Source: Acidimicrobiia bacterium
Lineage (GTDB): Bacteria; Actinomycetota; Acidimicrobiia; Spongiisociales; Spongiisociaceae
Assembly (NCBI GenBank): GCA_041576165.1
Contig: JBFGLM010000001.1
Location: 128,001 to 192,000 of the forward strand
Direction of reading: 5' to 3'
Length of the DNA stretch: 64,000 nt
Position numbers and translations under genes: made by a program. Position 1 is the stretch's first letter; each line of letters starts with the position of its first letter. The notes beneath the pieces were generated by a model, which saw only the letters and a list, made by a program, of their open reading frames with translations, searched no databases and had not been told where the DNA came from. Of the stretch, positions 936 to 22,503 are shown one piece after another.

Positions 936-3242
936 GTGTCCGACGGTCTCACACGACGTCGCTTTCTGCGCTCCGGCAGCCTGGCCGCGTTGGCCGGGAG
1001 TGTGTTCGCGACCACGGCAAACTCTCCGGCGTCTGCAGCAGGCCGCGTCCGGTCCGGGTCGGCGGCCGCCTGGCAGGCCCCGCTCAGCGGCACGATCTCA
1101 GGGACCCAGGACTACGACGCCGGCTTTGAAGTGCCGGCGGGCACCACGTTGCGGTTCGACCCCGACGTCTCTACCACCGTCACCGTGCGGGCCAATGTGA
1201 TCGTGTACGGCACCCTCGAGATGAAGCCGGCCAACGCAAGCATCGTCCACAAGCTGGTTTTCGACGCCGTCGACGAGTCGCTGTTCGAAGGGGGCGGTAC
1301 CGACCCCGCGCCCGATGACACCGGCCTGTGGGTTATGGGGGCCGGGCGGCTCGATCTAGCGGGGGCGGAAAAGCAGGCCTGGAACCGGACTGGAGACCAC
1401 GCGAGCTGGTCGAGCTCGGACGAACTGGTCGTCACCCCCACCGCAGCTGGTGACTACACGTTCAGGAGTCATACCCGGGGGTCGGCGGTACCCACCGTTG
1501 CCAACCCGTACGGCGGCGAGGCGGCCTATCTCGAGCCGTCGAGCCTGGCGTTCTCAGACATCTTCGGCAACACGCATACCGCCAACATCGAGTCGATCGC
1601 TGCCGCCGGGATCACTCGCGGGTGCACAACCGTCCTTTACTGTCCCAACCACCCGGTAACCCGCGGCCAGATGGCTGCGTTCCTGAACCGGGCACTGGGT
1701 CTGCCCGCCGCCCCCTCCGCCGGATTCTCCGACACGATCGGGCACACATTTGCGGACGATATCGACCGGGTCGCGGCTGCTGGTATCACCCTGGGTAGGA
1801 CCCCGAGTAGTTTCGCGCCGGATGATCCGGTCACCCGGGGCCAGATGGCGGCCTTTCTCACCCGGGCCCGTAACCTGCCACCGGCACCCCCCGCCGGGTT
1901 CTCCGACACGATCGGGCACACATTTGCGGACGAGATCAACCGGGTGGCGGCCGCTGGAATCACCCTGGGCACCACTGCGACCACGTACGCTCCCGATGAG
2001 GTGGTCAGCCGGGCACAGATGGCTTCTTTTCTCGCGCGGGCATTCGACCTCCCCGTCCCGGATCTGGGCAACCTCACCGATGGGACGGCCTTTCGGGCCG
2101 AGATCCTGAACCTCACCCGCAACGTTCGGATCGAGGGCACGGCTTCCGGCAAGACGCACATCTTCATCCGGTCGTCGGCGGCTCAGAGCATCCGCTACGT
2201 GGCGATCCGGTATGTGGCGCCTGATTTCAAAAGTGGCAGCGTCGCCGATGTCGGCCCCATCGATGCCACCGGCCGCTATGGAATTCACTTTCATCACTGC
2301 GGCGACGGGTCACGCGGAACGACCGTGGAAGGCTGTGTTGTTCGCGACGCCGATGGGCACGCCTTCGTTCCCCACATGAGTCACGGGATCACGATGGTGA
2401 ACTGCATTTCGTACAACACGCGGATGGATGCGTACTGGTGGGACGAAGGCAAGGCCAACCAGACCGACGACATCATCTGGGACAAATGTGTCGCCGCCGG
2501 GGTGGGGGCGGGGCCCAATCACAATCCCCACCGGGTGGGCGGCTTCGCCCTGCAGTTCGGCGATCGCAACGTCGTCACCAACTGTGTGGCCGTCGGGGTG
2601 GGGGGCAGCAGCGACTCGGCAGGGTTCAAATGGCCGGAGTTCGCCAACAACTCGGTGTGGACTTGGGGCTCAAACGTCAGCCACAACAATCTGCGATCGG
2701 GCTTGTTCACGTGGCAAAACGACACGCGGAACCACGATGTGGGCTTCTTCACGTCGTATCACAACGGCCTCCATGGCATCAACCACGGGGCCTATTTCAA
2801 CGAGTACTTCTATCACGACGCGGTGCTCTACGGAAACGCCGGCGCCGGCGTGATCCTCAAGGCCGTCAATCATCTGGGCACGTCGGCCGCACTCAGGTTC
2901 GAGCGGCTGGTGATCGACGGCGCCGGGATCACACCCACCTTGGTGATCAACGGTCAGCACACGGGGGCCGCCGAGAACATTCCGCTCCCGACCAAGTTCA
3001 CCGACTGCACGATGCTCAACGAGACCGACGTCAAGGTGAAGGTGAAGAACGTCCGCCAGGACGGCGGCATCGGCGGCCAGGGCTTCAAGGATCGATGGGA
3101 CTTCGTGAACTGCGGGATGCAGGTAGCAGACATCTACTTCACCGCCGACGCCGATCCCGAATCGCTGGTGCGAGCACAAAACGGGTCCTCGGCGTTCGAG
3201 GTAGACGTGACCGGCAGCCGAACCATCAGCCCATTTGCCTAG
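936..3242 (+). CDS. Tat-exported G8-like / 3xSLH / right-handed beta-helix protein
   Basis: Tat motif TRRRFL; G8-like N-terminus; three SLH repeats (VTRGQMAAFL); LNLTRNVRIEG and GRYGIHFHHCGD...SHGI motifs as in CEMIP/TMEM2/fibrocystin-type beta-helices. Confidence 0.8.
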   Translation: MSDGLTRRRFLRSGSLAALAGSVFATTANSPASAAGRVRSGSAAAWQAPLSGTISGTQDYDAGFEVPAGTTLRFDPDVSTTVTVRANVIVYGTLEMKPANASIVHKLVFDAVDESLFEGGGTDPAPDDTGLWVMGAGRLDLAGAEKQAWNRTGDHASWSSSDELVVTPTAAGDYTFRSHTRGSAVPTVANPYGGEAAYLEPSSLAFSDIFGNTHTANIESIAAAGITRGCTTVLYCPNHPVTRGQMAAFLNRALGLPAAPSAGFSDTIGHTFADDIDRVAAAGITLGRTPSSFAPDDPVTRGQMAAFLTRARNLPPAPPAGFSDTIGHTFADEINRVAAAGITLGTTATTYAPDEVVSRAQMASFLARAFDLPVPDLGNLTDGTAFRAEILNLTRNVRIEGTASGKTHIFIRSSAAQSIRYVAIRYVAPDFKSGSVADVGPIDATGRYGIHFHHCGDGSRGTTVEGCVVRDADGHAFVPHMSHGITMVNCISYNTRMDAYWWDEGKANQTDDIIWDKCVAAGVGAGPNHNPHRVGGFALQFGDRNVVTNCVAVGVGGSSDSAGFKWPEFANNSVWTWGSNVSHNNLRSGLFTWQNDTRNHDVGFFTSYHNGLHGINHGAYFNEYFYHDAVLYGNAGAGVILKAVNHLGTSAALRFERLVIDGAGITPTLVINGQHTGAAENIPLPTKFTDCTMLNETDVKVKVKNVRQDGGIGGQGFKDRWDFVNCGMQVADIYFTADADPESLVRAQNGSSAFEVDVTGSRTISPFA
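1640..1970 (+). repeat. Intragenic 174-nt-period duplication encoding SLH repeats
   Basis: Identical 35-mer TTCTCCGACACGATCGGGCACACATTTGCGGACGA at 1725 and 1899, with similar flanks. Confidence 0.85.
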
Positions 3243-3279
3243 GTTCGACCCGTTCGATCGGATGCTGCCCTCGCGGCCT

Positions 3280-4356
3280 TCACTCGAGCCCGTACAGCCG
3301 GCAGAGCGCGCCCGACACCGCTGATGGTAAGTACGCGCCGGCGCGCTCACGTCCTGCTTCCCCCAGCCGGCATCGGGTAGCCGGATCTTCCGCCAAGGTC
3401 CGTACGGCGGCGTTGAGGGCTTCCTGGTCGTCGACGGGCACCAACAAGCCGCCCTCGCCGATCACCTCGCGCAGCGCCGGAATGTCGAATGCAACCAGCG
3501 GGATCGCGTTCATCATCGCTTCTGCAGCAACACGACCGAAGGACTCTTGCCGCGACGGCATCAACACCACGTCGGCCTCGTTGTAGATCTCTCGTACGTC
3601 GTGCAGCCGGCCGAGGTGGACCACCCTGTCTTCGAACTGCCGGAGCGCCTCCCAATGCGGGTCCTGCTCGGCCGGCTCCTTGCCGGCGGTCAACAGGCGC
3701 ACCGGCAGGTCGGCCAACGCCGCCATGAGGGCCGGCAACGTGTCGAACCCCTTCCTGGTCGAGTCGCCACCCAGGAACGCCAGGGTGAAGACCTGGCTGT
3801 CGGGCGCCGGTCGGTCGGCGAGCACGAGCGCGGGATCGATCGGGTTCGGCACGACCGTCATCCGGTCGGGAGTGGCGACGCCCGCTTCGAGTATCTGGTC
3901 GGCCGCGGCGTGCGAGACCGCAGCCCACCGCGTGTCCACCTCGGGTGTCCGCCACATCGGTGCGAGCGCCCGGATCTGACGGGGGACATCCACGCCGTGC
4001 GCCCATACCACGAGCGGCACGCGTGTGGCGCGGGCGGCGGGGAATGCCACGGCCATTTCAGGCATGCCATTGGCGTGGATCGCGGCCAGCCGCGTTCCGC
4101 TGGCCAGAGCCCATCGTCGGAGTGACCAGGCACTCAACAGCGCCCGAGCCGTGCGCAGTGGCCCGTGGGCCCGGACGTCCACGAGCTCGTCGAACAAACC
4201 CGTGCTGTCCAGATAACGCGCGGCTTTGCTGCCCATCGGGGCCCCGAGGATGCGATGCACACCCTCGATCACGCCGACATGCGTCTCCAGCGCGCGAATA
4301 GAGCCACCGAGCGCGGGCGGCAGCGAGACAAACAGCACCGATGCGTGAACAGCCAT
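3280..4356 (-). CDS. Glycosyltransferase family 4 (GT-B)
   Basis: RKGF, ADVVLMPSRQESFGRVAAEAM (E-x7-E), DIPALREV motifs. Confidence 0.9.
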   Translation of the reverse strand: MAVHASVLFVSLPPALGGSIRALETHVGVIEGVHRILGAPMGSKAARYLDSTGLFDELVDVRAHGPLRTARALLSAWSLRRWALASGTRLAAIHANGMPEMAVAFPAARATRVPLVVWAHGVDVPRQIRALAPMWRTPEVDTRWAAVSHAAADQILEAGVATPDRMTVVPNPIDPALVLADRPAPDSQVFTLAFLGGDSTRKGFDTLPALMAALADLPVRLLTAGKEPAEQDPHWEALRQFEDRVVHLGRLHDVREIYNEADVVLMPSRQESFGRVAAEAMMNAIPLVAFDIPALREVIGEGGLLVPVDDQEALNAAVRTLAEDPATRCRLGEAGRERAGAYLPSAVSGALCRLYGLE

Positions 4357-4364
4357 GGACCCGG

Positions 4365-4428
4365 CGAGCCTATCCCCCGGTCGCGCATATGCAGCGGGAA
4401 AGCTAGACCCCGGGTCCCGATAGGCTCG
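4365..4428. promoter_or_regulatory. Divergent mirrored -10 elements for the GT4 and sulfotransferase genes
   Basis: CGAGCCTATC (4365-4374) and GATAGGCTCG (4419-4428) form a perfect 10-bp inverted repeat, placing TAGGCT 10 and 7 nt before the two ATGs. Confidence 0.55.
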
Positions 4429-4433
4429 GCGGC

Positions 4434-5354
4434 ATGCGGATCCTCTACCTCGCCGGGCTCGGCCGCAACGGCAGCACGATCGTGAGCAACGTTCTCGGAA
4501 CGGCCCCAGGTCTGTTTCCGGTCGGCGAGGTACGATCGATTTGGAGCCACGGGTTCGGGTCCGGCGCGCTGTGTGGATGTAGCACCCCGATTCCCGAATG
4601 CCCGTTCTGGTCCCAGGTCGCGTCCGTGGGTGGGCTCGACCGCGGCGGGGCGCAACGATCGGCCGATCTCCACCGGCAACTGGTGAAACTCCGCCACCTG
4701 CGAGCGCTGGCGTCGGGGGAGGCGCCGGTGGATCTCGAGAATGACCTGGCGGAGTACCTCGACGTCCTCAGCCGCCTGTATCGCGCGATTCACGAGGTAG
4801 CCGGGTGTGATGTGATCGTCGACTCGAGCAAGGCGGCGCCCTACGCCGCCATCCTCGCCATGCTCGAAGCAGTAGATCTCAGAATCGTTCATCAGGTGCG
4901 CGACGCCAGGGCGTCGGCTCACTCGTGGACTCGGCGGCGCGAACACACCGACCTCCAGGGTGCCATGATGCCTCAATACCCTCCGTGGAAGACCGCCCTG
5001 CTGTGGAACGCATGGAACCTCGGGGCCGAGAAGCTGCGATCGAACCCGTACCACCGCCTGCGCTACGAAGACTTCGTTGGTGCGCCTCGCGCCGAGCTAC
5101 GCCGGGTGCTGGACTTCGCAGGCTTCCCCGATAGAGACGCGCAGTGGGTCGGCGAGCGGACCGCCGCCATCGGCGGGCACCACATGGTCCACGGGAATCC
5201 GTCGCGTGGCATGAGAGGCCCCGTCGAGTTGCGCCCCGACTGCGAGTGGGCCGGGTCGTTGCCCCGCACCTCAGAGGCCCTGGTGCTGGCCATGACGCTT
5301 CCGCTCCACCTGCGCTACGGATACGGCCTGGGGCGCCCACGGCCGCGCCCCTAG
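4434..5354 (+). CDS. Sulfotransferase (Sulfotransfer_3-like)
   Basis: 5'PSB-like AGLGRNGSTI, IVDSSK, 3'PB-like VRDARASAHSW, LRYEDFV. Confidence 0.85.
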   Translation: MRILYLAGLGRNGSTIVSNVLGTAPGLFPVGEVRSIWSHGFGSGALCGCSTPIPECPFWSQVASVGGLDRGGAQRSADLHRQLVKLRHLRALASGEAPVDLENDLAEYLDVLSRLYRAIHEVAGCDVIVDSSKAAPYAAILAMLEAVDLRIVHQVRDARASAHSWTRRREHTDLQGAMMPQYPPWKTALLWNAWNLGAEKLRSNPYHRLRYEDFVGAPRAELRRVLDFAGFPDRDAQWVGERTAAIGGHHMVHGNPSRGMRGPVELRPDCEWAGSLPRTSEALVLAMTLPLHLRYGYGLGRPRPRP

Positions 5355-5535
5355 AACCGGTCCACTCGGCGCTGCCAGGGCACGCTCCACCCTCCAACAA
5401 CACCCGGTCGGCAGTACACTTCGCCCCAGGCCAGGGCATCGGCCGTATTGGGCGACTGGGAGTTCCAACGGTGACGCGCGGATCGGTGTCCGTCCTGCCT
5501 GCGCATAGATGATTAGGTTTGGAGTTGGGGTTCGC

Positions 5536-6528
5536 ATGGAGCCAGTCGTCAACGTGATGGGCGTCAGCAAGACGTATGAGCCATCGCCGCCATGGCTCAG
5601 GATGATGCTGCGGTCGTCCATCAAACAGCCTGTCCATGCGCTGAAGAACGTTTCACTCAGCGTCGACGGTGGGCGCATCGTCGCCGTGGTGGGACCGAAC
5701 GGAGCGGGCAAATCGACACTCTTCCGGGTGCTGACCGGCCTTACCACCCCCAGCGGCGGCTCGGCCACGATCCTTGGTCACGATGTCACCTCCGAATCGG
5801 CCATCGTGCGTCGCCATCTCGGATTCATGCCACCCGAGGAGCGAACCCTGTGGATGCGCCATTCGTGCGCCGAGAACCTCACATTCCATGGCCGGCTGCA
5901 GGGCATGGGGGGCAACCACCTGGCGCGGCGGGTGGATGAGGTGCTGGATGTGGTCGGATTGGGTCGCGCAAAGGACCGTGTGGTTTTCGCGCTGTCCTCG
6001 GGAATGAACGCCCGCCTCCGCCTCGCCCGGTCGTTGCTGCACGAACCTTCGGTGATCATTCTCGACGAGCCCACCGGCACGCTGGACCCAGTGGGTGCCC
6101 ACGAAATGCTCACCGTCATCCAAAAGGTCACGGTCGAACGCAACATCGCCGTCCTCCTCTCCAGCCACCGGATGGAAGACATCGAGGCGCTGCACGACAA
6201 CGTGCTGATGATCTCCTCCGGCCAGGTGGCGTACTGGGGCGACCTCGATGAGCTCCGCTCGAGATGGGAGAAGCCCCAGATCGAAATCGCATTCCGTGAA
6301 CACGACCAGGCCCTCGCCGGGGCGAAGGCGCTCCGCTCGCTGCCGGGGGTAGCCGGCGTGGTTCAGGAGGACCACGTGACCTATGTTGCCACCGACCTGC
6401 CGATCGGCGACCTGCTCGGCCGCCTCAACCGCCAGGTCTCCGGGATCACAAAGGTGGAGGCGACGCGGCGACCACTGCGAGAACTCCTTGCGGACATGCT
6501 CACCAACACCGAAGGCCAGGTGGCGTAA
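5536..6528 (+). CDS. ABC exporter ATP-binding protein
   Basis: Walker A GPNGAGKST, signature LSSGM, Walker B IILDEP, H-loop SSH. Confidence 0.92.
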   Translation: MEPVVNVMGVSKTYEPSPPWLRMMLRSSIKQPVHALKNVSLSVDGGRIVAVVGPNGAGKSTLFRVLTGLTTPSGGSATILGHDVTSESAIVRRHLGFMPPEERTLWMRHSCAENLTFHGRLQGMGGNHLARRVDEVLDVVGLGRAKDRVVFALSSGMNARLRLARSLLHEPSVIILDEPTGTLDPVGAHEMLTVIQKVTVERNIAVLLSSHRMEDIEALHDNVLMISSGQVAYWGDLDELRSRWEKPQIEIAFREHDQALAGAKALRSLPGVAGVVQEDHVTYVATDLPIGDLLGRLNRQVSGITKVEATRRPLRELLADMLTNTEGQVA

Positions 6529-7394
6529 TGGCCAGCCAGTTGATCGAACGCCAGCCGGTTCGCCATGCCGCTTCCCAGTTCCACCGGGCTCGGCGCACCG
6601 CGCTCGGGTTTTTGCGGATGGGCTACCTGCGGTCGGTGGCGTACCCCCTCGGGTTCGTGCTCGAGCAGCTCAACGCCCTCGTGTTCCCGGTCGTGTTCGT
6701 CTTCATTGCCCAACTCACCGGGCCGTCCGGTGCAGCCGACCGTTTCGGCGGCGACTACTACACGTTCGTGATCATCGGGATCTTCTCGGTCCATGCCATC
6801 ACTTCGGGTATCAAGGGTTTTTCCGCCGAACTCGATCAGGCCATCGTGCACGGCAACTTCGAAATGCTGCTGGTCGAGCCGATCCGGTGGCGCATGCTCC
6901 CGTTCGCCATGTCGCTGTGGCCGATGATCCTCGGCTTGCTCACGGGCGCCTTCATCCTCCTCTCGGGCGGGGTGCTGGGCGCTGAGTACAACCTGGTGGG
7001 CTTGCTGCCCGCCCTCCCGATCGTTCTTCTCGGCCTCACGGCCGGCCTGTCGGTCTCCATCTTCTCGGCCTCGGTCAAGGTGCTCGCCAAGAAGGGCGAC
7101 CCGATCCTCACCGTCTTCCTGCTCATCGCTCACGTCTTCTCCGGCGCCTACTTTGCGCTGGAGATGATCCCGGGATGGATCCGCTGGGTGTCCTACCTGA
7201 TACCCCATACCTACGTGATCGGCGCGCTGAGGCGGGTGCTGATGCCGGCCGGCTCCACGCTCGACGCGATGACCCTGGACACGGCCCTCGTGGGGCTGGT
7301 GATCTTCAACGTCATCATGTATCCACTGGCTCTGTACCTGTTCGGACGCGGCATGGAGGTGGGTCGCAAATACGGACTGCTCGGCGGCTACTAG
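6528..7394 (+). CDS. ABC-2 type exporter permease
   Basis: About 6 hydrophobic segments; FSGAYFALEMIPGW and PHTY motifs; overlaps the ATPase stop. Confidence 0.88.
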   Translation: MASQLIERQPVRHAASQFHRARRTALGFLRMGYLRSVAYPLGFVLEQLNALVFPVVFVFIAQLTGPSGAADRFGGDYYTFVIIGIFSVHAITSGIKGFSAELDQAIVHGNFEMLLVEPIRWRMLPFAMSLWPMILGLLTGAFILLSGGVLGAEYNLVGLLPALPIVLLGLTAGLSVSIFSASVKVLAKKGDPILTVFLLIAHVFSGAYFALEMIPGWIRWVSYLIPHTYVIGALRRVLMPAGSTLDAMTLDTALVGLVIFNVIMYPLALYLFGRGMEVGRKYGLLGGY

Positions 7395-7455: not shown

Positions 7456-7752
7456 ATGCGCAAGACGCCCGAGGATCTACCCGACCTGCACGGGGTGCTC
7501 GATCTCGGCCACTCGGCGGGCGGAGACCATCTGCGCAGCATCCTCATCGCGGATCGGCGCCTCACGGCTCAGCAGATCGCCGTGAACGTCCGGGGCACCG
7601 GCCGGATCGGGGGCACCGGCGCGGAGCTGAAGGACACGGCAGCCGGTGAGGTACGCCATGGCATCCATGGGACGAGCCGGCTGGAATGGGGCAGAGGCGT
7701 CGTGTACGCCAAAATCACGCCACACCGCATGTTCACGTTCCACATGCAATGA
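7456..7752 (+). pseudogene. Internally deleted pyridoxamine-5'-phosphate-oxidase-family gene (probable remnant)
   Basis: N-terminus (TPEDL..L..LD..GDHLRSI...RRL) and C-terminus (VYAKITPHRMFTFH) resemble an actinobacterial PNPOx-like family, but the ORF is only 98 aa and lacks the central flavin-binding core. Confidence 0.5.
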
Positions 7753-8222
7753 GAACATTCACGACCACGACGGCAAGCCCGCTCGGACCCATTCAGCTCG
7801 CCGGAAGCGAGCAGTACCTGACCGGCGTGTGGTTCGCCCAACGCCGGCACGCACCGGACACGACGGGTTGGGAAAGCACGCGCACGCCGTTCGAGCGGGC
7901 GCTACTTCAGCTCGAAGCCTATTTCGCGGGCGAGCTGCGGGAGTTCGTCCTGGATCTGGCTCAGGAGGGCACCCCATTTCAACGCCAAGTCTGGGAGGAG
8001 CTGGCGACGGTTCCCTACGGATCCACGATCTCCTACGCCGAGCTGGCCGCTCGCATCGGGCGGCCGGGTGCAGCCCGGGCGGTTGGGGCGGCAAACGGAC
8101 GCAACCAGTTGTCGATCATCATCCCTTGCCACCGGGTGATCGGACACGACGGGCGGCTGGTCGACTACGGCGGCGGGCTCGCCCGCAAACAAGCACTACT
8201 GGAACTAGAAGGAGCGCGTTGA
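7749..8222 (+). CDS. ogt: Methylated-DNA--protein-cysteine methyltransferase
   Basis: GTPFQRQVW, AARAVGAA, active-site IPCHRV; ATGA overlap with the upstream ORF. Confidence 0.93.
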   Translation: MRTFTTTTASPLGPIQLAGSEQYLTGVWFAQRRHAPDTTGWESTRTPFERALLQLEAYFAGELREFVLDLAQEGTPFQRQVWEELATVPYGSTISYAELAARIGRPGAARAVGAANGRNQLSIIIPCHRVIGHDGRLVDYGGGLARKQALLELEGAR

Positions 8223-11925: not shown

Positions 11926-11941
11926 CGCTGGCACCACCCCT

Positions 11942-15270: not shown

Positions 15271-15393
15271 TGCTGACACCCCCTGGCGGATCCACGCAAG
15301 GCTAGGCAACGTTTGGGGGGCGCCCCGCCAGCACCCATCCATGACAGGCCAATGTATCGACTCTTGCGCGGCAATAAAACCCACCGGCCTGGT

Positions 15394-16617
15394 TCACAGG
15401 CCGGCGTAGTACTGCCCGACCTCAGTCCCGACAACGCTGTGGTAGCCCGGCTCGAGGTGGCCAATGTTGTCGCGATATCCGCTGCAATCCGGTAGCTCCG
15501 GTGAGAAGCCGGCATTCACCCCGGGTTCGATCGCCGCCACCTGGGCAATCGCCTGGTCGATGTAGGGATGCTGGACCGAAGCCCTCACCTGCTGGCCGTT
15601 CCAGTTGCACACGGACTCGTTGGGTCCGCCGACAACCGGCTGCAGCAGGATCTCACGAGTCGTCGGGTGCTGAAGCCAAATCTGGGTCACCGCTGCGCGG
15701 ATGTTGGCGGTCCACGCGGCCACGTCGCTGCCCGAGATACCGCTGATCGTGAGCACGGCCCGATCGACGATGGGCACCTCGCAGCCCGAAAACGGATCCA
15801 ACGCCCACCCTTCCCAGTCCGAGCCGGCGATCAGGTCCACGCCGGCTCCGCTGTCCCAGCGGAGCTGCCACGAAGCGTCGTCCACACCCGATTCGAAAGC
15901 ACCTCCGTTCGGCTCATACCATTCGCTGGTCTGGGAGAACCCGATGACTTCCGTGCATACGAAGCCCACCCGAGGCGGAGGAACCATGGGAGTCAGGGCG
16001 AGCGCCCGCCCGAGGAAGGTCGCCATTTGATCCCGCCGGACGGACTGTCGAGGACAGTACCGGCTGGTATCGCTCACCGAACAACCCTGGGTCACTCCTG
16101 CCACCGCTACGCCGTCGATATTGCGCTCGTGGACCGAGCCGTCGTCGTCATCGAACACGTCCGCCGAAGAGGCAGTGAGGTTCGGGAACGCACGTACCAG
16201 AAACGTCGCCATCTGGGCCCGGCTCACGGGCTCGTCCGGGCAGTACCGGCGCGGGGCGAATGGATCGCATCCCGATGTCACGCCGATGGCTGCCATGACG
16301 TTGATCCATGCCTCATGCACCGAGCCTTCATCGTCATCGAACGCATCCAGGTGGCCGCCCGGGGGGAGCGAAAGAGCCCGGCCGATGAACGTCGCCATCT
16401 GCCCTCGGGTCACGGCCCGGCTCGGGCAGTAGAACGTGCCGGCCTCATTACACCCAGCGGTGATCGAGGCCGCGGCCACCGCCTCGATGTAGCCCTCGTG
16501 GGTGTTGCCGTCGTCGTCGTAGAACGTGCCGCCCGGTGGCGGCTCGCCGGCCCAGACCAGTCCGTATGGCCAAAAAGACGTCACCGCGAGCACGACCCCG
16601 ACCAGTGCTGTACGCAT
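15394..16617 (-). CDS. Secreted 3xSLH protein with C-terminal SGNH-like domain
   Basis: Signal peptide MRTALVGVVLAV; SLH repeats (YCP...TRGQMATF); C-domain VIGFSQT ... DNIGHL. Confidence 0.75.
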   Translation of the reverse strand: MRTALVGVVLAVTSFWPYGLVWAGEPPPGGTFYDDDGNTHEGYIEAVAAASITAGCNEAGTFYCPSRAVTRGQMATFIGRALSLPPGGHLDAFDDDEGSVHEAWINVMAAIGVTSGCDPFAPRRYCPDEPVSRAQMATFLVRAFPNLTASSADVFDDDDGSVHERNIDGVAVAGVTQGCSVSDTSRYCPRQSVRRDQMATFLGRALALTPMVPPPRVGFVCTEVIGFSQTSEWYEPNGGAFESGVDDASWQLRWDSGAGVDLIAGSDWEGWALDPFSGCEVPIVDRAVLTISGISGSDVAAWTANIRAAVTQIWLQHPTTREILLQPVVGGPNESVCNWNGQQVRASVQHPYIDQAIAQVAAIEPGVNAGFSPELPDCSGYRDNIGHLEPGYHSVVGTEVGQYYAGL

Positions 16618-16786
16618 GACCCCTATCTCCCGCAGCAAGACGGCTTGCGGAACCCAAACCCTGCTTCCAGCATACCGGGAGGCCGATCCCGACAACGACA
16701 CGGAGTAGCAGCGGCGGTGCCGGTACACTTCACCACCGGAATGACCACGAGCCGACACTCGTGATTCGCGGTCACATCATTCTCGT

Positions 16787-17686
16787 ATGGGGGCGAACAT
16801 GACAGCCAGGGGGGACATACCTCGCTCCGTCCAGATGAAATCGGAGGACGGCTCGATCAGTGAGCCTGCATTCTTCGAAGCACCGACAGGCTCGTTGTTC
16901 GGCGTGACGCACATCCCGAGCAACCCCACCGGCTTGGGCGTCGTGATCTCGTCACCGCTCAACAACGATTTCTTGAAGAACAACCGGCGAGAGGTCTTGC
17001 TGTCGCGCCGCCTGGCCGAGCGAGGAATCGCAGTGCAGCGTTACCACTACGCGGGCACCGGCAACTCCGACGGAGATGCCGCTGCGTTGACCGTACAATC
17101 GATGATCGAGGACTGTGAACAGGCCACGGACCATCTGATGGAACGGACCGGCGTCGAACGCCTTGTGTTTGTAGGCTCACGTATGGGCGGCTTCCCGGCC
17201 GCAACGGCGGCCGCCGGCCGCCACGCACCGCTCGCCATGTGGGAGCCGATCACCGAAGGCCGAAAATACTTCCGGGAGCTGTTCCGCACCGTCATGATCG
17301 TCGGTATGCAGGCCTCAGACGGTGACGGCGCTTCCATGACCGACATCAAAGAGGCATTCGAGCGCGATCGCACCGTCGACGTCGCCGGATTCTCCGTGGG
17401 ATGGGCCATGTATGAGGACGCGCAGCAGCGCCGCCTCGAAGAACAATGCGGGGAGGGAAATGCCCCCGTCTTCCTCGCCCAGTATCGGGAGAAACCCGAG
17501 CTGAAACCAGAGTACGCGAAGCTGGTGGCGGCATGGGAACAGGCCGGGCGAAAGGTCACGGTCCACCACGTCGCATTCGAGGAAGCGTGGCACTTGTTCG
17601 TGTTCGGCTTCAAGGCCGAAGAGGAGCAACAACACAGCCTGAACCTGCTCGATGCGACGGTGGATTGGATCGTGGGTCAGGTATGA
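16787..17686 (+). CDS. Alpha/beta-hydrolase-fold protein, Arg-elbow class (copy R2)
   Basis: NNRREVLLSRRLA, YAGTGNSDGD, elbow GSRMG, MWEP. Confidence 0.8.
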   Translation: MGANMTARGDIPRSVQMKSEDGSISEPAFFEAPTGSLFGVTHIPSNPTGLGVVISSPLNNDFLKNNRREVLLSRRLAERGIAVQRYHYAGTGNSDGDAAALTVQSMIEDCEQATDHLMERTGVERLVFVGSRMGGFPAATAAAGRHAPLAMWEPITEGRKYFRELFRTVMIVGMQASDGDGASMTDIKEAFERDRTVDVAGFSVGWAMYEDAQQRRLEEQCGEGNAPVFLAQYREKPELKPEYAKLVAAWEQAGRKVTVHHVAFEEAWHLFVFGFKAEEEQQHSLNLLDATVDWIVGQV

Positions 17687-18642
17687 GCGACGAGCGCCCG
17701 TTCGTCGACGAACCGGTGTTCTTCCCCGCCGAGGATGAGACGTTGTTCGGAATCCATTCCCATCCCATCGCCACGCGTCGCGGGGTTGGGGTTGTGATCA
17801 TTGCCGGCGGCGACAACGTGAATGCCGCCATGAGCCGCAACCGCGTGGGCCGGCGGCTCGCACACACTCTGGCAGCCGATGGGTATGACGTCCTCCGATT
17901 CACGTACCACGGCGTTGGTGAGAGCACCGGGGTGGTCGAGGGGTTGCACGTTCACCGGCCCTTCACCACGGACGTCGTCGGGGCCACCGAGTTTCTCGCC
18001 CGCCGCGGGCTCAGCTGTTTCGTACTCATCGGTTCGTGCTTCGGGGCGCGCACGGCCCTGTCCAGCGCCGCGCTGATCCCCGACACGGCCGGCGTGGTGC
18101 TCATCACCCCACCATCCGGCGCCTATGAGCGGGCAGAGGCCATGGCCGAGTGGATGGCCCGGACCCGCTCATTTCGTGAATATGCCCGGCGCGGGTTCAG
18201 CCTCACCAAGCTCCGCGAGATGTTCGACACGGGCAAGCGCCAGACGTACCTGCAGCTCTTCCGCAAGAAGAGCGTCGCCGTGTTCCAGAAGCTGCTCCGC
18301 CGGCTCCGGCTGGTGGAGAGCGGCGAGTATGACTGGGTCAGCCCGATGTTGCTTGAACCTCTGGACGCCATGGTCGAGCGTCAAGTCCCGGTGCTGTTCG
18401 AGTTCGGGACCCACGACGCCTGGGGATCCGAGTTTCGCGACGCCGCCAAGGGGCCGCTGGGCGCCATCCTCCGGCGGGGCGAAGGCCTGATCGAGGTGGT
18501 CGACGACTTGCCCGGGGTTGCCCACGGTTTGGTGCGGGTCCGGGTGCAGGACTCTTTCCTCGACACCACGGTCACCTGGCTGACCAATCGCGTTCCGGGC
18601 CAGCAGCCAGGGCATGAGGAGCAGAGTGCGGTGGCGGTCTGA
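17683..18642 (+). CDS. Alpha/beta-hydrolase-fold protein, Cys-nucleophile class (copy C3)
   Basis: ATGA overlap with R2; YHGVGESTG, GSCFG, FGTHD, GVAHGL; close paralogue of 14332-15270. Confidence 0.82.
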   Translation: MSDERPFVDEPVFFPAEDETLFGIHSHPIATRRGVGVVIIAGGDNVNAAMSRNRVGRRLAHTLAADGYDVLRFTYHGVGESTGVVEGLHVHRPFTTDVVGATEFLARRGLSCFVLIGSCFGARTALSSAALIPDTAGVVLITPPSGAYERAEAMAEWMARTRSFREYARRGFSLTKLREMFDTGKRQTYLQLFRKKSVAVFQKLLRRLRLVESGEYDWVSPMLLEPLDAMVERQVPVLFEFGTHDAWGSEFRDAAKGPLGAILRRGEGLIEVVDDLPGVAHGLVRVRVQDSFLDTTVTWLTNRVPGQQPGHEEQSAVAV

Positions 18643-18654: not shown

Positions 18655-19521
18655 TCAGTCGATTCGACGAATCCACGCCGAGGCACGTTCCACGAACGCC
18701 TCTTGTACGGCTACCGACGGGTATCCGTGCAATCGTCCCACTACGGAGGCATCTACTTCGATAGCCGGGGACGCGGCCAGCACTCCCAGCGGCCCTGCCT
18801 GCGCCTCCCGAAACTGGGCGTAGAAATCGTCTTCGGTGCCGTACACGAGGAGCACCCGGCCGCCCCGTCCGGCCACCGCGCGCAGGCCCCCCACCACCGA
18901 GTCCGCAACCCACGGTGTCGGGTTGGCACCCGATGTACGGTACGCCGTCAATGATCGAATCTTGTTCGTGAGGATCCGCAGGTACCGATCCCGGCGGCCG
19001 GCGATCAACAACCCGGCCAGGCCCTTGCGGCCGAAACCCCGCTTGAGAAAGTCGGCGGTCGAGTTGTCCATTGCCTTGCGTTTCTCGGGATCGGCGACGG
19101 GCAAGGCGGACAGCACCAGACCCTCGACGACCGGAAGTTCGGCCGCTACCCCGACGGCCGTTCGCGCCCCGAAACACGAGCCGACCGCATAGATGCGGTG
19201 CACACCCGGTTCGGCGGCGAGCGCGTTGACGATGGCGACGCCGTCGCTCACGAACGGATCGGACAGTGCGAAGGTTTCATTGTTGCCCGTGCTCTCTCCC
19301 ACGCCGCGGAAGCCGACGCGAAGGACTGTGTATCCGTCGGTAGCGAGACCGCGGGCGAACTCAACCGTCCACCGGTTGCGGTGCGAGGGCAGGTTGTGAT
19401 CGCCGCCTCCGTGCAGCACGACCACCCCCACACCGTTGGGCTCTGCTTGCGGCCGGGTCATGATCCCGAACAGGGTTTCGGAACCGACGTCGATGAAGTG
19501 AGGGCTCTCAGCAACGATCAT
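18655..19521 (-). CDS. Alpha/beta-hydrolase-fold protein, Cys-nucleophile class (copy C4)
   Basis: FRGVGESTG, GSCFG, YGTED, GRLHGY; ATGA overlap with R3. Confidence 0.82.
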   Translation of the reverse strand: MIVAESPHFIDVGSETLFGIMTRPQAEPNGVGVVVLHGGGDHNLPSHRNRWTVEFARGLATDGYTVLRVGFRGVGESTGNNETFALSDPFVSDGVAIVNALAAEPGVHRIYAVGSCFGARTAVGVAAELPVVEGLVLSALPVADPEKRKAMDNSTADFLKRGFGRKGLAGLLIAGRRDRYLRILTNKIRSLTAYRTSGANPTPWVADSVVGGLRAVAGRGGRVLLVYGTEDDFYAQFREAQAGPLGVLAASPAIEVDASVVGRLHGYPSVAVQEAFVERASAWIRRID

Positions 19522-20396
19522 GAGCGGGCCAGCCAGTCGGCAGTCAGGTCAAGTAGCTGTTTTTCTGCCTGGCGGCTCTGAACCGGAGAGGCGTGCTCGT
19601 CGTAGTTGTGGATCCACCACCCGTCGCCGGGCGGCACGATCGCAACGGTAGCTCGACCGCCGGCGCCGGCGACGGCGTCTGCCAGCAGTTGGATCCCCGC
19701 TTTGACCTTCTCGGTCCGGCTGGCCTGAACCATCAGGACGTCGCCCCAGCCGCCGGTCGGGAACTCCGCGGCGAGCGCAGATTCAAACAGCGCCTTGTGG
19801 ATGTGATAGCCGACAACGTCGAGGCGTCCGGTGACCATGAGCTCCTCTCGCATGGCGGCCGAACTGGAAGTTCCCTCATCGCCGGCAATCACGCCGACCA
19901 TCCGCCGGGTGCGGAAGACCTCATCGAAGTAGCGGCTGACGTCCGGCACCGGTTCCCACAGGACCAAGCGAGCGTCGGGCAAGCGGGACGCGACTGCCGC
20001 TGCGACGTAGCCGGCCAGCCGGGTGCCGACAACATCGACCGTCTCCGTCCCGGTCTCTTCTCGCAGCTGGTCCGCCACCCGGAAAGCGTCGTGGATCATC
20101 GAATCCATGGTCAGGTGAACGGCCGATCCGGAGCTATCACCACATCCGAGGTAGTGGAACCGGCCGGCGGCGATGCCGGATTCGGCCAACCGGCGAGCCA
20201 GGCGCACCTCCCGCCCGTAGTTCTGCATGAATTCGGCATAGAGCGGACTGCAGATCAATGTTGCTCGCCGCGCGTCGTTCGCCTCGTGGACGACCACGAA
20301 CATCGGCGGTTCGCCGACAAACCCCGCTACCTCGCGCCCGCTCGGAGTAGAGCGGACAGCTCGCCCGGCGGCCTCGATCCCTGCATGTGAGCTCAT
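19518..20396 (-). CDS. Alpha/beta-hydrolase-fold protein, Arg-elbow class (copy R3)
   Basis: NYGREVRLARRLA, YLGCGDSSG, elbow GTRLA, LWEP. Confidence 0.8.
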   Translation of the reverse strand: MSSHAGIEAAGRAVRSTPSGREVAGFVGEPPMFVVVHEANDARRATLICSPLYAEFMQNYGREVRLARRLAESGIAAGRFHYLGCGDSSGSAVHLTMDSMIHDAFRVADQLREETGTETVDVVGTRLAGYVAAAVASRLPDARLVLWEPVPDVSRYFDEVFRTRRMVGVIAGDEGTSSSAAMREELMVTGRLDVVGYHIHKALFESALAAEFPTGGWGDVLMVQASRTEKVKAGIQLLADAVAGAGGRATVAIVPPGDGWWIHNYDEHASPVQSRQAEKQLLDLTADWLARS

Positions 20397-20526
20397 TCAG
20401 AATCCCCCGGCTTCTGAGCCGGACCAACCCTATGTCGTCCGATGCGTTATCTCAATCCCCTAGCTGGCACTAGTCCGGTTGACCGAGCGGGGACCACACC
20501 TCGCTAGCTCTGGCCGGCAGCATAAG

Positions 20527-20787
20527 ATGGATCAGATGCAGGGGATCCGGGACACCGTCCGGCAGTTCATCGCGGAAGAGCTCGCATCGGGGACGGTGGA
20601 AATCACCGACGACACACCGCTGATCGAGCAAGAGATCATGGACTCGACAGGAATTCTCACGGTGATCGGCTTTCTGGAGGACGAGTACGACATATTCATC
20701 GACGCCGATGACGTGAGTGTCGAACAGTTCCGGACCGTCAACGCTATCGCCGAGCTGGTGCTGGCCAAACAGGCAGAGGGCGAGTAG
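20527..20787 (+). CDS. Acyl/peptidyl carrier protein 2
   Basis: Acidic, about 86 aa, IMDSTG phosphopantetheine site, EQFRTVNAI tail. Confidence 0.88.
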   Translation: MDQMQGIRDTVRQFIAEELASGTVEITDDTPLIEQEIMDSTGILTVIGFLEDEYDIFIDADDVSVEQFRTVNAIAELVLAKQAEGE

Positions 20788-20790
20788 CGG

Positions 20791-21678
20791 ATGGAGCCGG
20801 TCGAATCGGGGGGACGTTGGGCGTGGGTGCCGGGACGTAGATTGATCAAGCGTCTGGCGCGCAGCGCCCGCCTCCGTCTGTACGCGAACCCGGTGCGGCA
20901 GTTGTATGAACGTGGCGTCCTGGACCGCAATCGTTTGACCTGGCCCCAGTTCCTGGGAATCGGCGCTCCCAAGGCCGGCACGACCTGGCTGCATCACAAC
21001 CTCGCGGCACACCCCAACCTCTACCTTCCCGACCGCAAAGAATTGCACTTTTTCACCGGGCATCAGTACCGGGGCGTGCGCTGGTACGCCCGCCAGTTCT
21101 CTGCGGCCGGCGACCGGATGCCGGGCGAGATCACGCCGGGATATGCAACTCTGCCGGCCGCAGAGATCGCCGGAATCCGACGCCTCTTGCCTGATGCGCG
21201 GCTCTTGTTGCTGGTGCGCAATCCGGTCGACCGGGCGTGGTCGCATGCCGTGATGAAGCTGGCGCGCGAAACCGGCCGGGCCATCGACGAGGTCCCCGAT
21301 GCCGAGTACATCGCACACTTCCGAGGCGAACATTCGATGCAACGCGGCGACTACCGCCGCATGATCAGTACGTGGACGTCAGTGTTTCCGTCCGAACGGC
21401 TCTGGGTTTGGTCCTTCGACGACATCATCAACAACCCGCAGCGGCTGTTGACATCAGCTTTTCGACATCTCGGAGTTGATGAGGTGACCGATTGGAGCGG
21501 TTTTCCCTACGCCCAGGTGATCGACCGGGGCGTCCACGGCGGCACCGACGTCTTCGACAAATCGCCGGGGCCGGACATCCCCGAGCGGCTGCGACCGGCG
21601 CTGGAGGACCTCCTGCTGCCCCAGATCGAGCAGCTAGCTGAATGCTGGCCGGAGATCGCCAAACCGTGGCTGCCCTAG
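20791..21678 (+). CDS. Sulfotransferase (Sulfotransfer_1, heparan-sulfotransferase-like motifs)
   Basis: GAPKAGTTWL, KELHFF, GEITPGY, RNPVDRAWS. Confidence 0.9.
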   Translation: MEPVESGGRWAWVPGRRLIKRLARSARLRLYANPVRQLYERGVLDRNRLTWPQFLGIGAPKAGTTWLHHNLAAHPNLYLPDRKELHFFTGHQYRGVRWYARQFSAAGDRMPGEITPGYATLPAAEIAGIRRLLPDARLLLLVRNPVDRAWSHAVMKLARETGRAIDEVPDAEYIAHFRGEHSMQRGDYRRMISTWTSVFPSERLWVWSFDDIINNPQRLLTSAFRHLGVDEVTDWSGFPYAQVIDRGVHGGTDVFDKSPGPDIPERLRPALEDLLLPQIEQLAECWPEIAKPWLP

Positions 21679-21738
21679 CCGGCCGGAGCCCCGCAGTCGG
21701 GCGGCCCACAATGTGGCGGATCACCTAGCATCGCGGGC

Positions 21739-22503
21739 ATGGACAGGGGGTTTGTCGCCGGGATTGGGTTGATTCTGGTCGTCGCCGCGTGTGGTGGCGG
21801 GACGTCCCTGCCGGGGGCTCCATCCACCGATGCCACGGCCGTCAGCACCGCTGCAACCTCCCGCGCCTCGACGACCACCGCCCCGCCCGCAACGACGCGC
21901 ACGACCGCGGCCACAACCACCACACCGGCACCAATCGCGGCGACCCCGAGCGAGCTTCCCGAGGGAACCGTCGGCTTCGTCGGATGCTCGGTGTCCCAAA
22001 ACGCAGTCGCGGGATACACCCGTTTCCTGGGCGGCACGCGAATGTGGCCACCGAGCGCCCCCTACGGCGGCGGGTCGCTTGGGCGGTGGGAGCGCGGGCT
22101 ACTTGGTGACAGGAGCCGATACTGGAGCGGGTTTGACGAGCTGCTGGCCGAACACCCAGACACCAAGACGATTTGGTTCTCGCTCTGTACCTTCCGCGGG
22201 GCACCGGTCGACAACGTCGACACGGCGTTGGCGATCCTCACAGAAGTTCGGCGCCGCCTGCCCGACGCAGTGGTCTACGTGTCCGGGCAGCCAACCTATT
22301 CCGGCGGCCACTTCTGCGAGCTGGCGGGCGACACCGGGGCTCAGAAGATGGCGGAGATTGCCGCAGAGCTGGTCAACATGGGGGTGGCCTTGGCGGGACC
22401 GGTGATGGGCCCGCTGGCGGCCGATGAAACCAGCGACGGATGTCACGCCAACGAGACCGGCATGGAGCTGATGGGACGTCAGCTGCTCGACTTCTTCGGA
22501 TGA
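21739..22503 (+). CDS. Lipoprotein with SGNH-like domain
   Basis: Lipobox VVAAC; Thr/Ala-rich linker; FVGCSVS ... SDGCHAN; TAGCAT -10 element 7 nt before ATG. Confidence 0.7.
   Translation: MDRGFVAGIGLILVVAACGGGTSLPGAPSTDATAVSTAATSRASTTTAPPATTRTTAATTTTPAPIAATPSELPEGTVGFVGCSVSQNAVAGYTRFLGGTRMWPPSAPYGGGSLGRWERGLLGDRSRYWSGFDELLAEHPDTKTIWFSLCTFRGAPVDNVDTALAILTEVRRRLPDAVVYVSGQPTYSGGHFCELAGDTGAQKMAEIAAELVNMGVALAGPVMGPLAADETSDGCHANETGMELMGRQLLDFFG

Follow-up and report, generated by a model that had tools for sequence, protein, structure and literature searches.

A 64,000-nucleotide stretch of contig JBFGLM010000001.1 from an Acidimicrobiia bacterium (positions 128,001 to 192,000, assembly GCA_041576165.1), called the window below, carries an island at positions 936-22503 in which a carrier-protein module, probably for an amino acid-derived acyl group, lies together with genes for sulfation, glycosylation, export and surface proteins. 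The module consists of a stand-alone adenylation (A) domain, two acyl carrier proteins (ACP1 and ACP2) and two flavoproteins with acyl-CoA dehydrogenase (ACAD) fold (ACAD1 and ACAD2), and it is accompanied by seven alpha/beta-fold proteins of two families, here named h1 and h2. On balance we think it probable that the island serves to transfer a carrier-dependent, proline-like acyl group, by means of h1/h2 pairs, onto an exported, sulfated glycoconjugate.

Genes in the window (G+C 65%) were picked by codon-position composition and afterwards by family searches, and the maps of open reading frames (ORFs), based on codon-position GC or on the longest ORF, are heuristic. The names carried by homologues of its genes assign the organism to Acidimicrobiia. 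Annotation was based on Pfam and NCBIfam models, sequence searches against solved structures, and fold searches. The island (21.6 kb) is bounded by a gene for a YtkA-like protein and by ctaC, the first gene of a caa3 oxidase operon that continues with COX1, COX4 and CtaG. Since the YtkA-like homologue lies directly beside ctaC in four of the five complete genomes of the same family (G001, G007, G003 and G018; in the fifth, G014, ctaC was alone in the fetched stretch), positions 936-22503 coincide with a discrete accessory island inserted between these two genes. The same limits had been proposed in an earlier note made from the letters of this DNA alone, and the genes listed there were found in place by Pfam, NCBIfam, structure and fold searches; one gene, for an Ogt/MGMT protein at 7686-8222(+), was missing from that list.

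Within the 5.1-Mb assembly (G000, 96.5% complete, 7.5% contamination), tblastn placed all seven h1/h2 genes inside the island and three of the five sulfotransferase-like places within 22.5 kb here. Because of this concentration, and because the same gene sets recur in other genomes, the grouping of the island genes is not due to chance. The module genes form a tight minus-strand series (16758 to 8275) in the order SLH-repeat protein, h1b, ACAD2, ACAD1, h2a, h1a, A domain and ACP1, with overlaps or gaps of at most 13 bases except at the uncertain start of h2a. The pair h2b-h1c (16787-18642) is divergent from this series and is followed by h2c-h1d on the minus strand (20396-18655), and the right end of the island (20479-22503, plus strand) holds the genes for ACP2, a sulfotransferase and a lipoprotein.

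Among solved single-domain structures, PltF (6o6e) matched the A domain best, with 321.7 bits for the whole domain and 122.9 bits for the pocket segment. At the ten positions that we take to set specificity, read off the PltF alignment, the code of the window is DMAYSAQVCK against DLLYLALVCK in PltF, that is, six of ten positions agree. The nearest orthologue reads DMPYTAQVCK and likewise differs from the proline code at four of ten positions, and among about 50 A domains from related loci the set of Met, Ala or Pro, Ser or Thr, and Gln was seen only in these two. The A domains linked to ACAD2, on the other hand, mostly carry DLLYLALVCK or close variants, with the PltF-type proline code in seven loci (L020, L023, L041 and L043-L046), and the cassette in general thus probably uses proline. 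For the window A domain proline is not secure, and its pocket appears to be larger and more polar than the proline type.

The gene for ACP1 overlaps the A-domain gene by 4 bases, and ACP2 is 41% identical to ACP1. Identification of the ACPs as OlsHI ornithine-lipid carriers was rejected; the matches reached 44-59 bits against a cut-off of 130, and the OlsHI pathway, which uses a GH3-like enzyme, is unrelated. An APS (adenosine 5'-phosphosulfate) kinase and one AcpS-type phosphopantetheinyl transferase are encoded elsewhere in the assembly.

The top solved match of ACAD1 was AnaB (4irn), with 221 bits. The sequence WER of ACAD1 aligns with WER of AnaB and with YER of isovaleryl-CoA dehydrogenase (IVD), and the Glu of the medium-chain acyl-CoA dehydrogenase (MCAD) type is absent; we take the AnaB/IVD-type and MCAD-type positions to be those of the catalytic Glu. 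Matches to ACAD1 at E <= 1e-40 in 27 of 41 genomes were mostly ordinary ACADs, and close relatives were found only in G010 (70% identity), G005 (72%, partial) and G004 (52%). The counterpart in another genome, G035, scored 451 bits with the RedW and 427 bits with the PigA model. In G005 the orthologue (L017:14883-15443) aligns over residues 1-32 and 259-387 only, and may be a broken gene or an assembly fault.

For ACAD2 the nearest solved chains were 5z8t/5gj7, KijD3 (3m9v) and nitrososynthases, a group that includes the sugar N-oxygenases KijD3, DnmZ and ORF36, and the protein looks like a flavin oxygenase rather than a dehydrogenase. No characterisation of 5z8t/5gj7 was found in the open full-text literature, a scope that also applies to the literature searches below. 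As the earlier note had stated, no family of polyketide synthases (PKS), condensation domains, halogenases or membrane-bound O-acyltransferases (MBOAT) was matched by Pfam or NCBIfam models among the island ORFs. Its proviso that a partner PKS or nonribosomal peptide synthetase (NRPS) might lie elsewhere in the genome was not borne out: no modular PKS or NRPS was found in the 96.5%-complete assembly, which holds one isolated condensation-like ORF on another contig (C77), one full ketosynthase match and three partial, low-scoring ones.

The seven alpha/beta-fold proteins comprise four h1 with a Cys-His-Asp triad and three h2 with Arg at the site of the nucleophile. The motif GxCxG, the Asp and the His are invariant across the four h1 copies of the window. 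In a wider alignment Cys was present in 24 of 24 h1 sequences, Asp in 19 and His in 18; this alignment, drawn from 28 listed matches, omits L023:8465-9487, both L025 pieces (11404-12547), L027:8597-9745, L032:10483-11631 (internal stop), L036:3228-4082 and both L038 pieces. In the h2 alignment (omitting L019, L023, L029, L031, L036 and L038:872-1690), 26 of 32 sequences had Arg in place of the nucleophile and none had Ser or Cys there, and a conserved triad was absent; a homologue named by JGI "exosortase A-associated hydrolase 2" shares the Arg. The best family model was TIGR03100 for all four h1 (58-70 bits, cut-off 168.45) and TIGR03101 for all three h2 (72-104 bits, cut-off 202.75). Fold searches with Foldseek and VIA-align wide, using an h1 model with a predicted local distance difference test (pLDDT) value of 86.8, returned generic esterases, thioesterases and dienelactone hydrolases and no specific relative. 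As this fold is generic, we infer rather than observe that h1 acts as a transferase and not as a hydrolase.

Several lines of evidence join h1 to h2. The genes overlap by 4 bases between the stop of h2b and the start of h1c, by 4 bases between h2c and h1d, and by 13 bases between h2a and h1a, and h2 and h1 were adjacent in all 20 neighbourhoods fetched around strong h2 matches on long contigs (hand-picked, not random, some of them from the same genus). In one protein, P0037, the two are naturally fused as h2-h1, which was verified, the h1 half being 37% identical to h1c; other proteins of about 600 residues with two matched stretches were listed, and P0035, of similar length, proved not to be such a fusion. 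A complex prediction for h2b-h1c passed with a score of 0.91, against 0.00 for the best of three controls, the runs agreeing in at least 67% of the contacts and the partner pLDDT being at least 88; with this method the mark for passing was reached by 58 of 80 solved complexes and by 2 of 110 mismatched pairs (rough counts, with alignments of our own). These results suggest that h1 and h2 form a heterodimer in which h2 has no catalytic part and may instead hold the carrier or the acceptor. The h1/h2 proteins probably act as acyl transferases. Orthologues of h1b adjoin ACAD2 in L017, L020, L023 and L040-L047.

Synthetases of about 1,350 residues with condensation, adenylation, thiolation and h2 domains (C-A-T-h2) were observed in several genomes of the order (L019, L029, L031 and L036, in G004, G258, G156 and G135), next to genes for h1, an ACAD1-like protein and a second A domain, and with the A-domain code DLTKIGEVCK. 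Given the fusion and the h1 gene next door, h2 here stands where the releasing domain sits. These loci look like a separate small peptide or aminoacyl pathway using the same h1/h2 unloading pair.

On the surface side, the first island gene encodes a protein with SLH domains, as the earlier note had it, whereas the rest of that description was less firm: the CEMIP beta-helix match, at 27.2 bits, fell just short of the cut-off (27.3), and at E <= 0.01 there was no match to a G8 domain. The protein is a candidate wall-anchored glycan-processing enzyme, and its homologues lie beside ABC-2 and sulfotransferase genes in six loci (L012, L020, L026, L041, L043 and L046). Two exported SGNH-like proteins had also been proposed. 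For the lipoprotein at 21739-22503 the fold search agreed, with CE2 esterase, the O-acetyltransferase PatB and GDSL esterases as Foldseek matches (E 2e-5 to 1e-3); all 10 homologues compared keep the motifs G-C-S and C-H, with Ser84 and His236, and 7 of them have Asp233; no Pfam family was matched. For the SLH-repeat protein at 15394-16758 the claim stands only as a lead, from an Atlas feature search (0.89-0.90 for the C-terminus, against unnamed clusters and one named "putative SGNH"), and its C-terminal domain may be SGNH-like. BLASTP between these two exported proteins gave no similarity. The start of the SLH-repeat protein is likely near 16620, with a signal-like segment after an internal Met, and its homologues lie beside h1/h2 in L020, L021, L023, L024, L026, L038 and L039. 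In L021 and L023 an SGNH domain is fused to SLH-like repeats, and small modules of SGNH lipoprotein, ACP, h2 and h1 without an A domain, often with an SLH-repeat protein, occur in L024, L038 and L039.

The two sulfotransferases reported in the island are both present, and a third, of the Sulfotransfer_4 type, is encoded just upstream of the window, together with heme o synthase (CtaB) and an Lgt-like protein. The gene at 4434-5354 is the sole place of its sulfotransferase type in the assembly, and the neighbourhood of ACP and sulfotransferase seen at 20479-21678 recurs in L017, L020, L025, L040-L043 and L046. Polysaccharide exporter models (Wzm/Wzt, TagGH and KpsMT) were not among the 25 best matches listed for the exporter. 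Homologues of the family 4 glycosyltransferase (GT4), 36-38% identical, lie within the A/ACAD1 loci of G035 and G027. The positions and family matches of the individual genes are collected in the table.

Table. Genes of the island at 936-22503 and of its flanks. Bit scores are from Pfam and NCBIfam models; lower rows give further genes.
Feature	Position	Strand	Evidence
Tat (twin-arginine translocation)-exported SLH protein, C-terminal beta-helix	936..3242	+	SLH PF00395 78.4 bits; twin-arginine N-terminus RRRFL
GT4 glycosyltransferase	3280..4356	-	Glyco_trans_1_4 92 bits, Glycos_transf_1 84 bits
Sulfotransferase (Sulfotransfer_3)	4434..5354	+	PF13469 37.7 bits (cut-off 27)
ABC exporter ATPase	5509..6528	+	ABC_tran 111 bits; DrrA 200.8 bits (cut-off 312.45); NodI models 116-122 bits
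ABC-2 permease	6528..7394	+	ABC2_membrane 45.8 bits; DrrB-like 43.6 bits (cut-off 223)
ACP1 carrier, DSL serine motif	8275..8517	-	PP-binding PF00550 20.0 bits (cut-off 20.8); AmcB-like 51.5 bits
Stand-alone A domain	8514..10106	-	AMP-binding 286.6 bits; TIGR01733 394 bits (cut-off 317)
h1a, Cys-His-Asp alpha/beta protein	10103..11056	-	TIGR03100 64 bits (cut-off 168)
h2a, Arg-type alpha/beta protein	11044..12078	-	TIGR03101 79.7 bits (cut-off 203); GTRLA elbow; true start probably later than 12078
ACAD1, aminoacyl-carrier dehydrogenase of AnaB/RedW kind	11942..13108	-	RedW model 301 bits, PigA model 273 bits
ACAD2, ACAD-fold flavoprotein	13112..14335	-	Lacks both canonical catalytic Glu
h1b, Cys-type alpha/beta protein	14332..15384	-	TIGR03100 69.7 bits
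Exported protein, three SLH-like repeats	15394..16758	-	SLH 23.8 bits (cut-off 20.8), no single stretch passing
h2b, Arg-type alpha/beta protein	16787..17686	+	TIGR03101 103.6 bits; partner chain in complex prediction
h1c, Cys-type alpha/beta protein	17683..18642	+	Codon composition favours start 17683; pLDDT 86.8
h1d, Cys-type alpha/beta protein	18655..19521	-	TIGR03100 65.8 bits
h2c, Arg-type alpha/beta protein	19518..20396	-	TIGR03101 72.1 bits
ACP2 carrier, DST serine motif	20479..20787	+	PP-binding PF00550 24.8 bits (cut-off 20.8)
Sulfotransferase	20791..21678	+	Sulfotransfer_3 61 bits, Sulfotransfer_1 44.5 bits; 3 bases after ACP2
Lipoprotein, Thr/Pro-rich linker and SGNH-fold domain	21739..22503	+	Lipobox VVAAC; model pLDDT 81.6
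Ogt/MGMT DNA methyltransferase	7686..8222	+	DNA_binding_1 118.7 bits, Methyltransf_1N 39 bits
98-codon ORF	7456..7752	+	Coding-like GC by codon position 0.70/0.48/0.82; family unassigned
YtkA-like exported protein (left flank, outside island)	1..765	+	Weak YtkA match; gene begins upstream of window
ctaC (COX2; right flank, outside island)	22723..23823	+	COX2, COX2_TM and Cytochrom_C matches

The linkage between the carrier module and the surface genes was not confined to the window. Among 401 genomes sampled from the order (two unpublished ones included), the h2 profile matched 96 at E <= 1e-10, and 2,589 representatives of a 50%-identity library were matched at E <= 1e-30. Co-occurrence was counted by tblastn with the window's own proteins at E <= 1e-6, which misses distant family members, and all such counts are lower bounds: of the 20 neighbourhoods, 8 had a sulfotransferase, 9 an ACP and 7 a homologue of the SGNH lipoprotein no more than 10 kb from h2. 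In G035, from another family, 20 kb hold an A domain, ACAD1, a halogenase-like flavoprotein, sulfotransferases, two polysaccharide deacetylases, an Acetyltransf_6 GNAT, a GT4, an SLH beta-helix gene, h2-h1 and an ABC ATPase. In G027, WecA-like, CapD and GT4-GNAT genes flank the series ACP-A-ACAD1-ABC-ABC2-GT4, with three sulfotransferases and an SGNH-lipoprotein homologue nearby, and in G301 and G359, from a third family, h2-h1-ACAD2-ACAD1-A-ACP precedes genes for a sulfotransferase, an ABC-2 exporter and an SLH beta-helix protein. The co-occurrence of sulfotransferase, glycosyltransferase and SLH genes with the carrier module, which the earlier note had made the touchstone of its proposal, thus recurs in other families of the order, and also in a locus of Woeseiaceae described below.

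The flavoprotein of G035 (L012:4677-5966, on contig G035:C5) lies beside A and ACAD1 in a locus of glycan type and matches Trp_halogenase with 66.6 bits and a CmlS-like model with 144 bits, a hint that a surface polymer of that organism may bear halogenated pyrrolyl groups.

About 70-85 kb upstream of the island, at G000:C1:42431-59520, homologues of the polysaccharide deacetylases, the Acetyltransf_6 GNAT, CapD, the WecA-like protein and the GT4-GNAT protein lie together. The same gene types sit beside the A/ACAD1 module in G035 and G027, and this stretch may be the locus for the glycan on which the island acts.

A pattern scan for ACAD2 (one genome per species, based on four ACAD2 orthologues) gave 395 relatives, from which 80 loci were kept; 46 of these had an ACAD2 of orthologue grade (51-75% identity), followed by a gap down to 34%. 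The 46 loci span Acidimicrobiia, Bacteroidota, Calditrichia, Ignavibacteria, Rhodothermales, several gammaproteobacterial families, Planctomycetota and Lentisphaeria, with identities of 71-75% in other Acidimicrobiia and 51-63% in other phyla. By tblastn with the window proteins, ACAD1 was found at 23 of the 46 (at least 40% identity), the A domain at 24 (at least 37%), an ACP at 24, h1 or h2 at 16 and a sulfotransferase at 8; 16 of the 46 loci were shorter than 13 kb. The ACAD2-ACAD1-ACP-A cassette is old and widespread and recurs across phyla. Two cultured Bacteroidota carry it, Agaribacillus aureus BMA12 and Splendidivirga corallicola BMA10; in Agaribacillus it lies beside a FemAB-like GNAT (TIGR03019-like, 121 bits), DUF354, an AAC(3)-like acyltransferase and a GDSL/AlgX-like protein. 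In the Woeseiaceae locus (L076) A, ACP, ACAD2 and ACAD1 are found with Wzx-like, Wzy_C, sulfotransferase, heparinase II/III and two GT4 genes. In addition to ACAD2, the loci of Calditrichia (L051:11396-13117), Kangiellaceae (L058:11338-13059) and Woeseiaceae (L076:13642-15366) encode a third ACAD-like protein, which is longer (573-574 residues), ends in an ACOX/AcylCoA_dehyd_C tail and is absent from the window.

Taken as a pathway, the island would work as follows. The A domain, by its family membership, would load an alpha-amino acid onto ACP1, proline in most relatives and here a proline-like residue fitting the larger, more polar pocket. ACAD1 would dehydrogenate the tethered residue, as AnaB and RedW do, and ACAD2, with the ACAD fold and neither catalytic base, would modify it further, probably by oxygenation. 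Each Cys-type h1 would heterodimerise with an Arg-type, catalytically dead h2, as the complex prediction, the adjacency and the natural fusions suggest, take the acyl group from the carrier thioester onto its Cys, and hand it to ACP2 or to hydroxyl or amino groups of the acceptor; the three pairs and the extra h1 may serve different acceptor positions or steps. From the gene context, the acceptor would be a glycoconjugate built with the GT4, sulfated by the sulfotransferases with 3'-phosphoadenosine-5'-phosphosulfate (PAPS) and exported by the DrrAB/NodIJ-like ABC-2 pump, and three proteins would act on it outside the cell, namely the SGNH lipoprotein, the protein with SLH repeats and the Tat-exported SLH protein with a beta-helix.

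A number of points weigh against this pathway. The roles are assigned from homology, context and prediction, so that what the A domain loads, what ACAD2 does, what is acylated and what is sulfated are all deduced; the A-domain code departs from the proline code at four of ten positions; ACAD1 is far below the curated cut-offs (RedW 301 against 650, PigA 273 against 500); and h1 resembles only generic esterases and thioesterases in fold. MBOAT proteins are the usual partners of extracellular SGNH acyltransferases. None was found in the assembly (PF03062, 0 matches in G000, the control search being positive in three named genomes), which leaves the delivery of acyl groups to extracellular SGNH proteins unexplained, unless the group is carried on the exported molecule.

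Other points suit a different product altogether. Among the matches listed, the exporter's best models are DrrA and DrrB, which pump small molecules, and not Wzt, TagH or KpsT; the island has a single glycosyltransferase, the WecA, CapD and GT4-GNAT homologues being some 70 kb away; and in L051 (Calditrichia) and L058 (Kangiellaceae), two of the four loci annotated from other phyla, the cassette is compact and accompanied by a GNAT, with no polysaccharide genes seen in the annotated stretch. A small diffusible or membrane-bound natural product, such as a sulfated, glycosylated pyrrole or dehydroproline ester or amide with DrrAB-type efflux, would account for these features as well as for the type II NRPS-like A/carrier/ACAD module with PltF and AnaB as nearest solved relatives, the accessory nature of the island and the halogenase-like flavoprotein in one relative; the wall-anchored proteins would then be neighbours or serve self-protection. 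We nevertheless regard such a product as unlikely, since no PKS, NRPS or terpene enzyme that could build its scaffold was found in the island or elsewhere in the assembly, since the module is repeatedly co-located with WecA, CapD, Wzx, Wzy, deacetylase, SLH and SGNH genes, and since an exported SLH-repeat protein is the first gene of the tight minus-strand run of cytoplasmic enzymes. The position of a sulfotransferase directly after ACP2 raises another question, as it suits sulfation of the tethered acyl group as well as of a glycan. ACAD2, which is oxygenase-like, could hydroxylate the residue, the sulfotransferase could sulfate it, as a decoration or to make a leaving group, perhaps as in the sulfotransferase domain of the curacin synthase CurM, and h1/h2 could shuttle it between ACP1 and ACP2, for which two carriers and several Cys-type alpha/beta proteins are suited; CmaE and SyrC are examples of such carrier-to-carrier shuttling. 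We consider this quite improbable: the recurrent pairing of sulfotransferase and ACP in the eight loci named above comes in several cases from closely related genomes and is not independent, and three sulfotransferase types lie in or beside the island, one of them next to the genes for the GT4 and the exporter, a setting better suited to sulfation of a glycan.

The island might, finally, be no functional unit. In G005, the closest relative with the module, this lies between ctaC and ctaB without the block of GT4, sulfotransferase, ABC and beta-helix genes beside it, and in the window an unrelated Ogt gene separates the two halves, which are on opposite strands. That a carrier/hydrolase module (8275-22503) and a surface-glycan block (936-7394) were inserted side by side by chance and share no product is, however, very hard to reconcile with the same gene kinds being neighbours in G035, G027, G301, G359 and L046, that is, in several families and in different gene orders; moreover the module half itself contains a sulfotransferase, the SGNH lipoprotein and the SLH-repeat protein, and the sulfotransferase places cluster here as described. 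Transfer of the acyl group onto an exported glycoconjugate is the reading that we think most probable. We rejected degradation of a proline-like compound by the ACADs and hydrolases, since the carriers are dedicated ones, an A domain is present, and the island has sulfotransferases and not sulfatases; cytoplasmic acylation of the SLH proteins was set aside as unsupported.

The island is best filed as a carrier-dependent surface decoration system, related to the pyrrolyl-carrier modules, Dlt and an uncharacterised exosortase-A cassette and a member of none of them. PltF/PltL/PltE, RedM/RedO/RedW, PigI/PigG/PigA and CloN4/N5/N3 are modules that make pyrrolyl-2-carboxyl groups on a carrier. With these the island shares a free-standing A domain, a carrier and an ACAD, with PltF as nearest solved A domain, RedW and PigA as the best NCBIfam models of ACAD1, and exact PltF codes in relatives. 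It differs in its own A-domain code, in the score of ACAD1, which stays far below the equivalog cut-offs, in the additional, base-less ACAD2, in having no PKS, NRPS or halogenase partner in the island or assembly, and in its context of sulfation, glycosylation and surface genes. The suggestion of a pyrrolyl-type acyl group is thus favoured by the relatives, through their codes and one halogenase-like flavoprotein, and not by the code of the window itself. AnaC, AnaD and AnaB form the starter module of anatoxin-a, in which the oxidation by AnaB goes no further than two electrons. Of the solved structures AnaB matches ACAD1 best, and the same Glu position is conserved, but no PKS lies downstream here, a second flavoprotein is always adjacent, and the fate of the product differs.

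A named precedent for the combination of ligase and alpha/beta proteins is a set of NCBIfam models named after exosortase A (XrtA/PEP-CTERM): TIGR03098 (ligase), TIGR03100 (hydrolase 1), TIGR03101 (hydrolase 2) and TIGR03019 (FemAB-like), all uncharacterised. The A domain matches TIGR03098 with 335 bits (cut-off 592), h1 and h2 weakly resemble the two hydrolases, which likewise form an adjacent pair, and the FemAB-like gene of the Bacteroidota cassette resembles TIGR03019. On the other hand, all window scores are below cut-off, the island has no pyridoxal phosphate-dependent decarboxylase, the host is actinobacterial, three pairs and an extra h1 are present, ACAD1 and ACAD2 are added, and no exosortase A/EpsH was found in the 96.5%-complete G000 (PF09721, 0 matches). 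The hydrolase, the acyl carrier, the ligase and the decarboxylase are not mentioned in Haft et al. 2006 (PMC1569441), so that this cassette rests on the names of the NCBIfam models alone, and no characterisation of the exosortase-A-associated hydrolase pair was found in the open full-text literature. The view that no characterised pathway has this composition therefore holds insofar as the precedent is uncharacterised, but a named precedent exists and the alpha/beta proteins are not orphans. The proposal that the acyl group goes to a sulfated, exported glycan fared similarly, in that the surface and sulfation context recurs, while a glycan is a presumed acceptor and a presumed target of the sulfate. 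We put forward more tentatively, as a possibility we would not call probable, that h1/h2 constitute a new heterodimeric class of alpha/beta acyltransferases that unload carriers, whether the two proteins are separate, fused as h2-h1 or present at the end of C-A-T-h2 synthetases, and that these enzymes act together with the cassette to attach to surface glycans an acyl group that derives from proline and is oxidised and possibly sulfated, which would also explain the genes for exosortase A-associated hydrolases 1 and 2.

The Dlt system for D-alanylation consists of DltA, DltC, the MBOAT protein DltB and DltD. The likeness lies in an A domain and a small carrier that supply an acyl group to a wall polymer and in an SGNH-like protein outside the cell. 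In contrast to Dlt, the window A domain stays below the cut-offs of the DltA models (254-277 bits; TIGR01734 254.3 against 559.85), the MBOAT component is lacking, the tethered residue would be oxidised, and alpha/beta pairs would replace the missing transfer step. CmaE, SyrC and CloN7 use a hydrolase fold on aminoacyl or pyrrolyl groups bound to a carrier, as proposed here for h1; in CmaE and SyrC the active site has a Cys, and we know of no requirement of any of the three for an Arg-type pseudo-hydrolase partner. In Nod factor synthesis NodH is the sulfotransferase and NodIJ the ABC-2 exporter, so that a sulfated, acylated oligosaccharide is exported by an ABC-2 pump as proposed here, and the NodI models match the exporter ATPase; the window scores are however below the cut-offs, homologues of NodA, NodB and NodC are absent, and the acyl donor would be a dedicated carrier.

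Carrier-protein chemistry is well known for antibiotics and for the D-alanylation of teichoic acids, but to our knowledge hardly known for the decoration of polysaccharides with oxidised amino acid groups. No work on pyrrole-carboxyl or prolyl-carrier chemistry on polysaccharides was found in the open full-text literature. If the proposed pathway is correct, the marine Acidimicrobiia, which are abundant, and many Bacteroidota and Gammaproteobacteria would carry an undescribed proline-derived, sulfated surface modification, a type of glycan decoration that still lacks a chemical description. Such a modification would bear on cell-surface charge, on recognition by phages and grazers and on the pool of sulfated marine polysaccharide. 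A large "hydrolase" pair, including the exosortase-A-associated one, would gain a function and a mechanism, a Cys enzyme combined with an Arg pseudo-enzyme. With two cultured strains holding the cassette, the question is open to experiment.

Some further observations concern the window and its genome. The SLH-like repeat of the proteins at 936-3242 and 15394-16758 was found at 47-49 places in the assembly (e.g. C65:17272-18966 and C25:929-9051); with about 48 such places, the genome encodes a large set of proteins with wall-binding repeats. A pyruvyl transferase gene lies at C40:17709-18584. The Ogt/MGMT gene, which is probably a passenger, sits in the middle of the island with the exporter genes on one side and ACP1 on the other, and a second, partial homologue is present on contig C7. 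It is the real gene in a longer ORF, 7646-8437(+), whose codon composition is non-coding-like. The 98-codon ORF at 7456-7752(+), for which no Pfam or NCBIfam family was matched, overlaps the annotated Ogt start with its 3' end. Outside the island, an FtsH-like protein (window 30479-32839, plus strand) matched the AAA domain in two stretches, with a long gap before the lid and M41 domains, and may carry an insertion.

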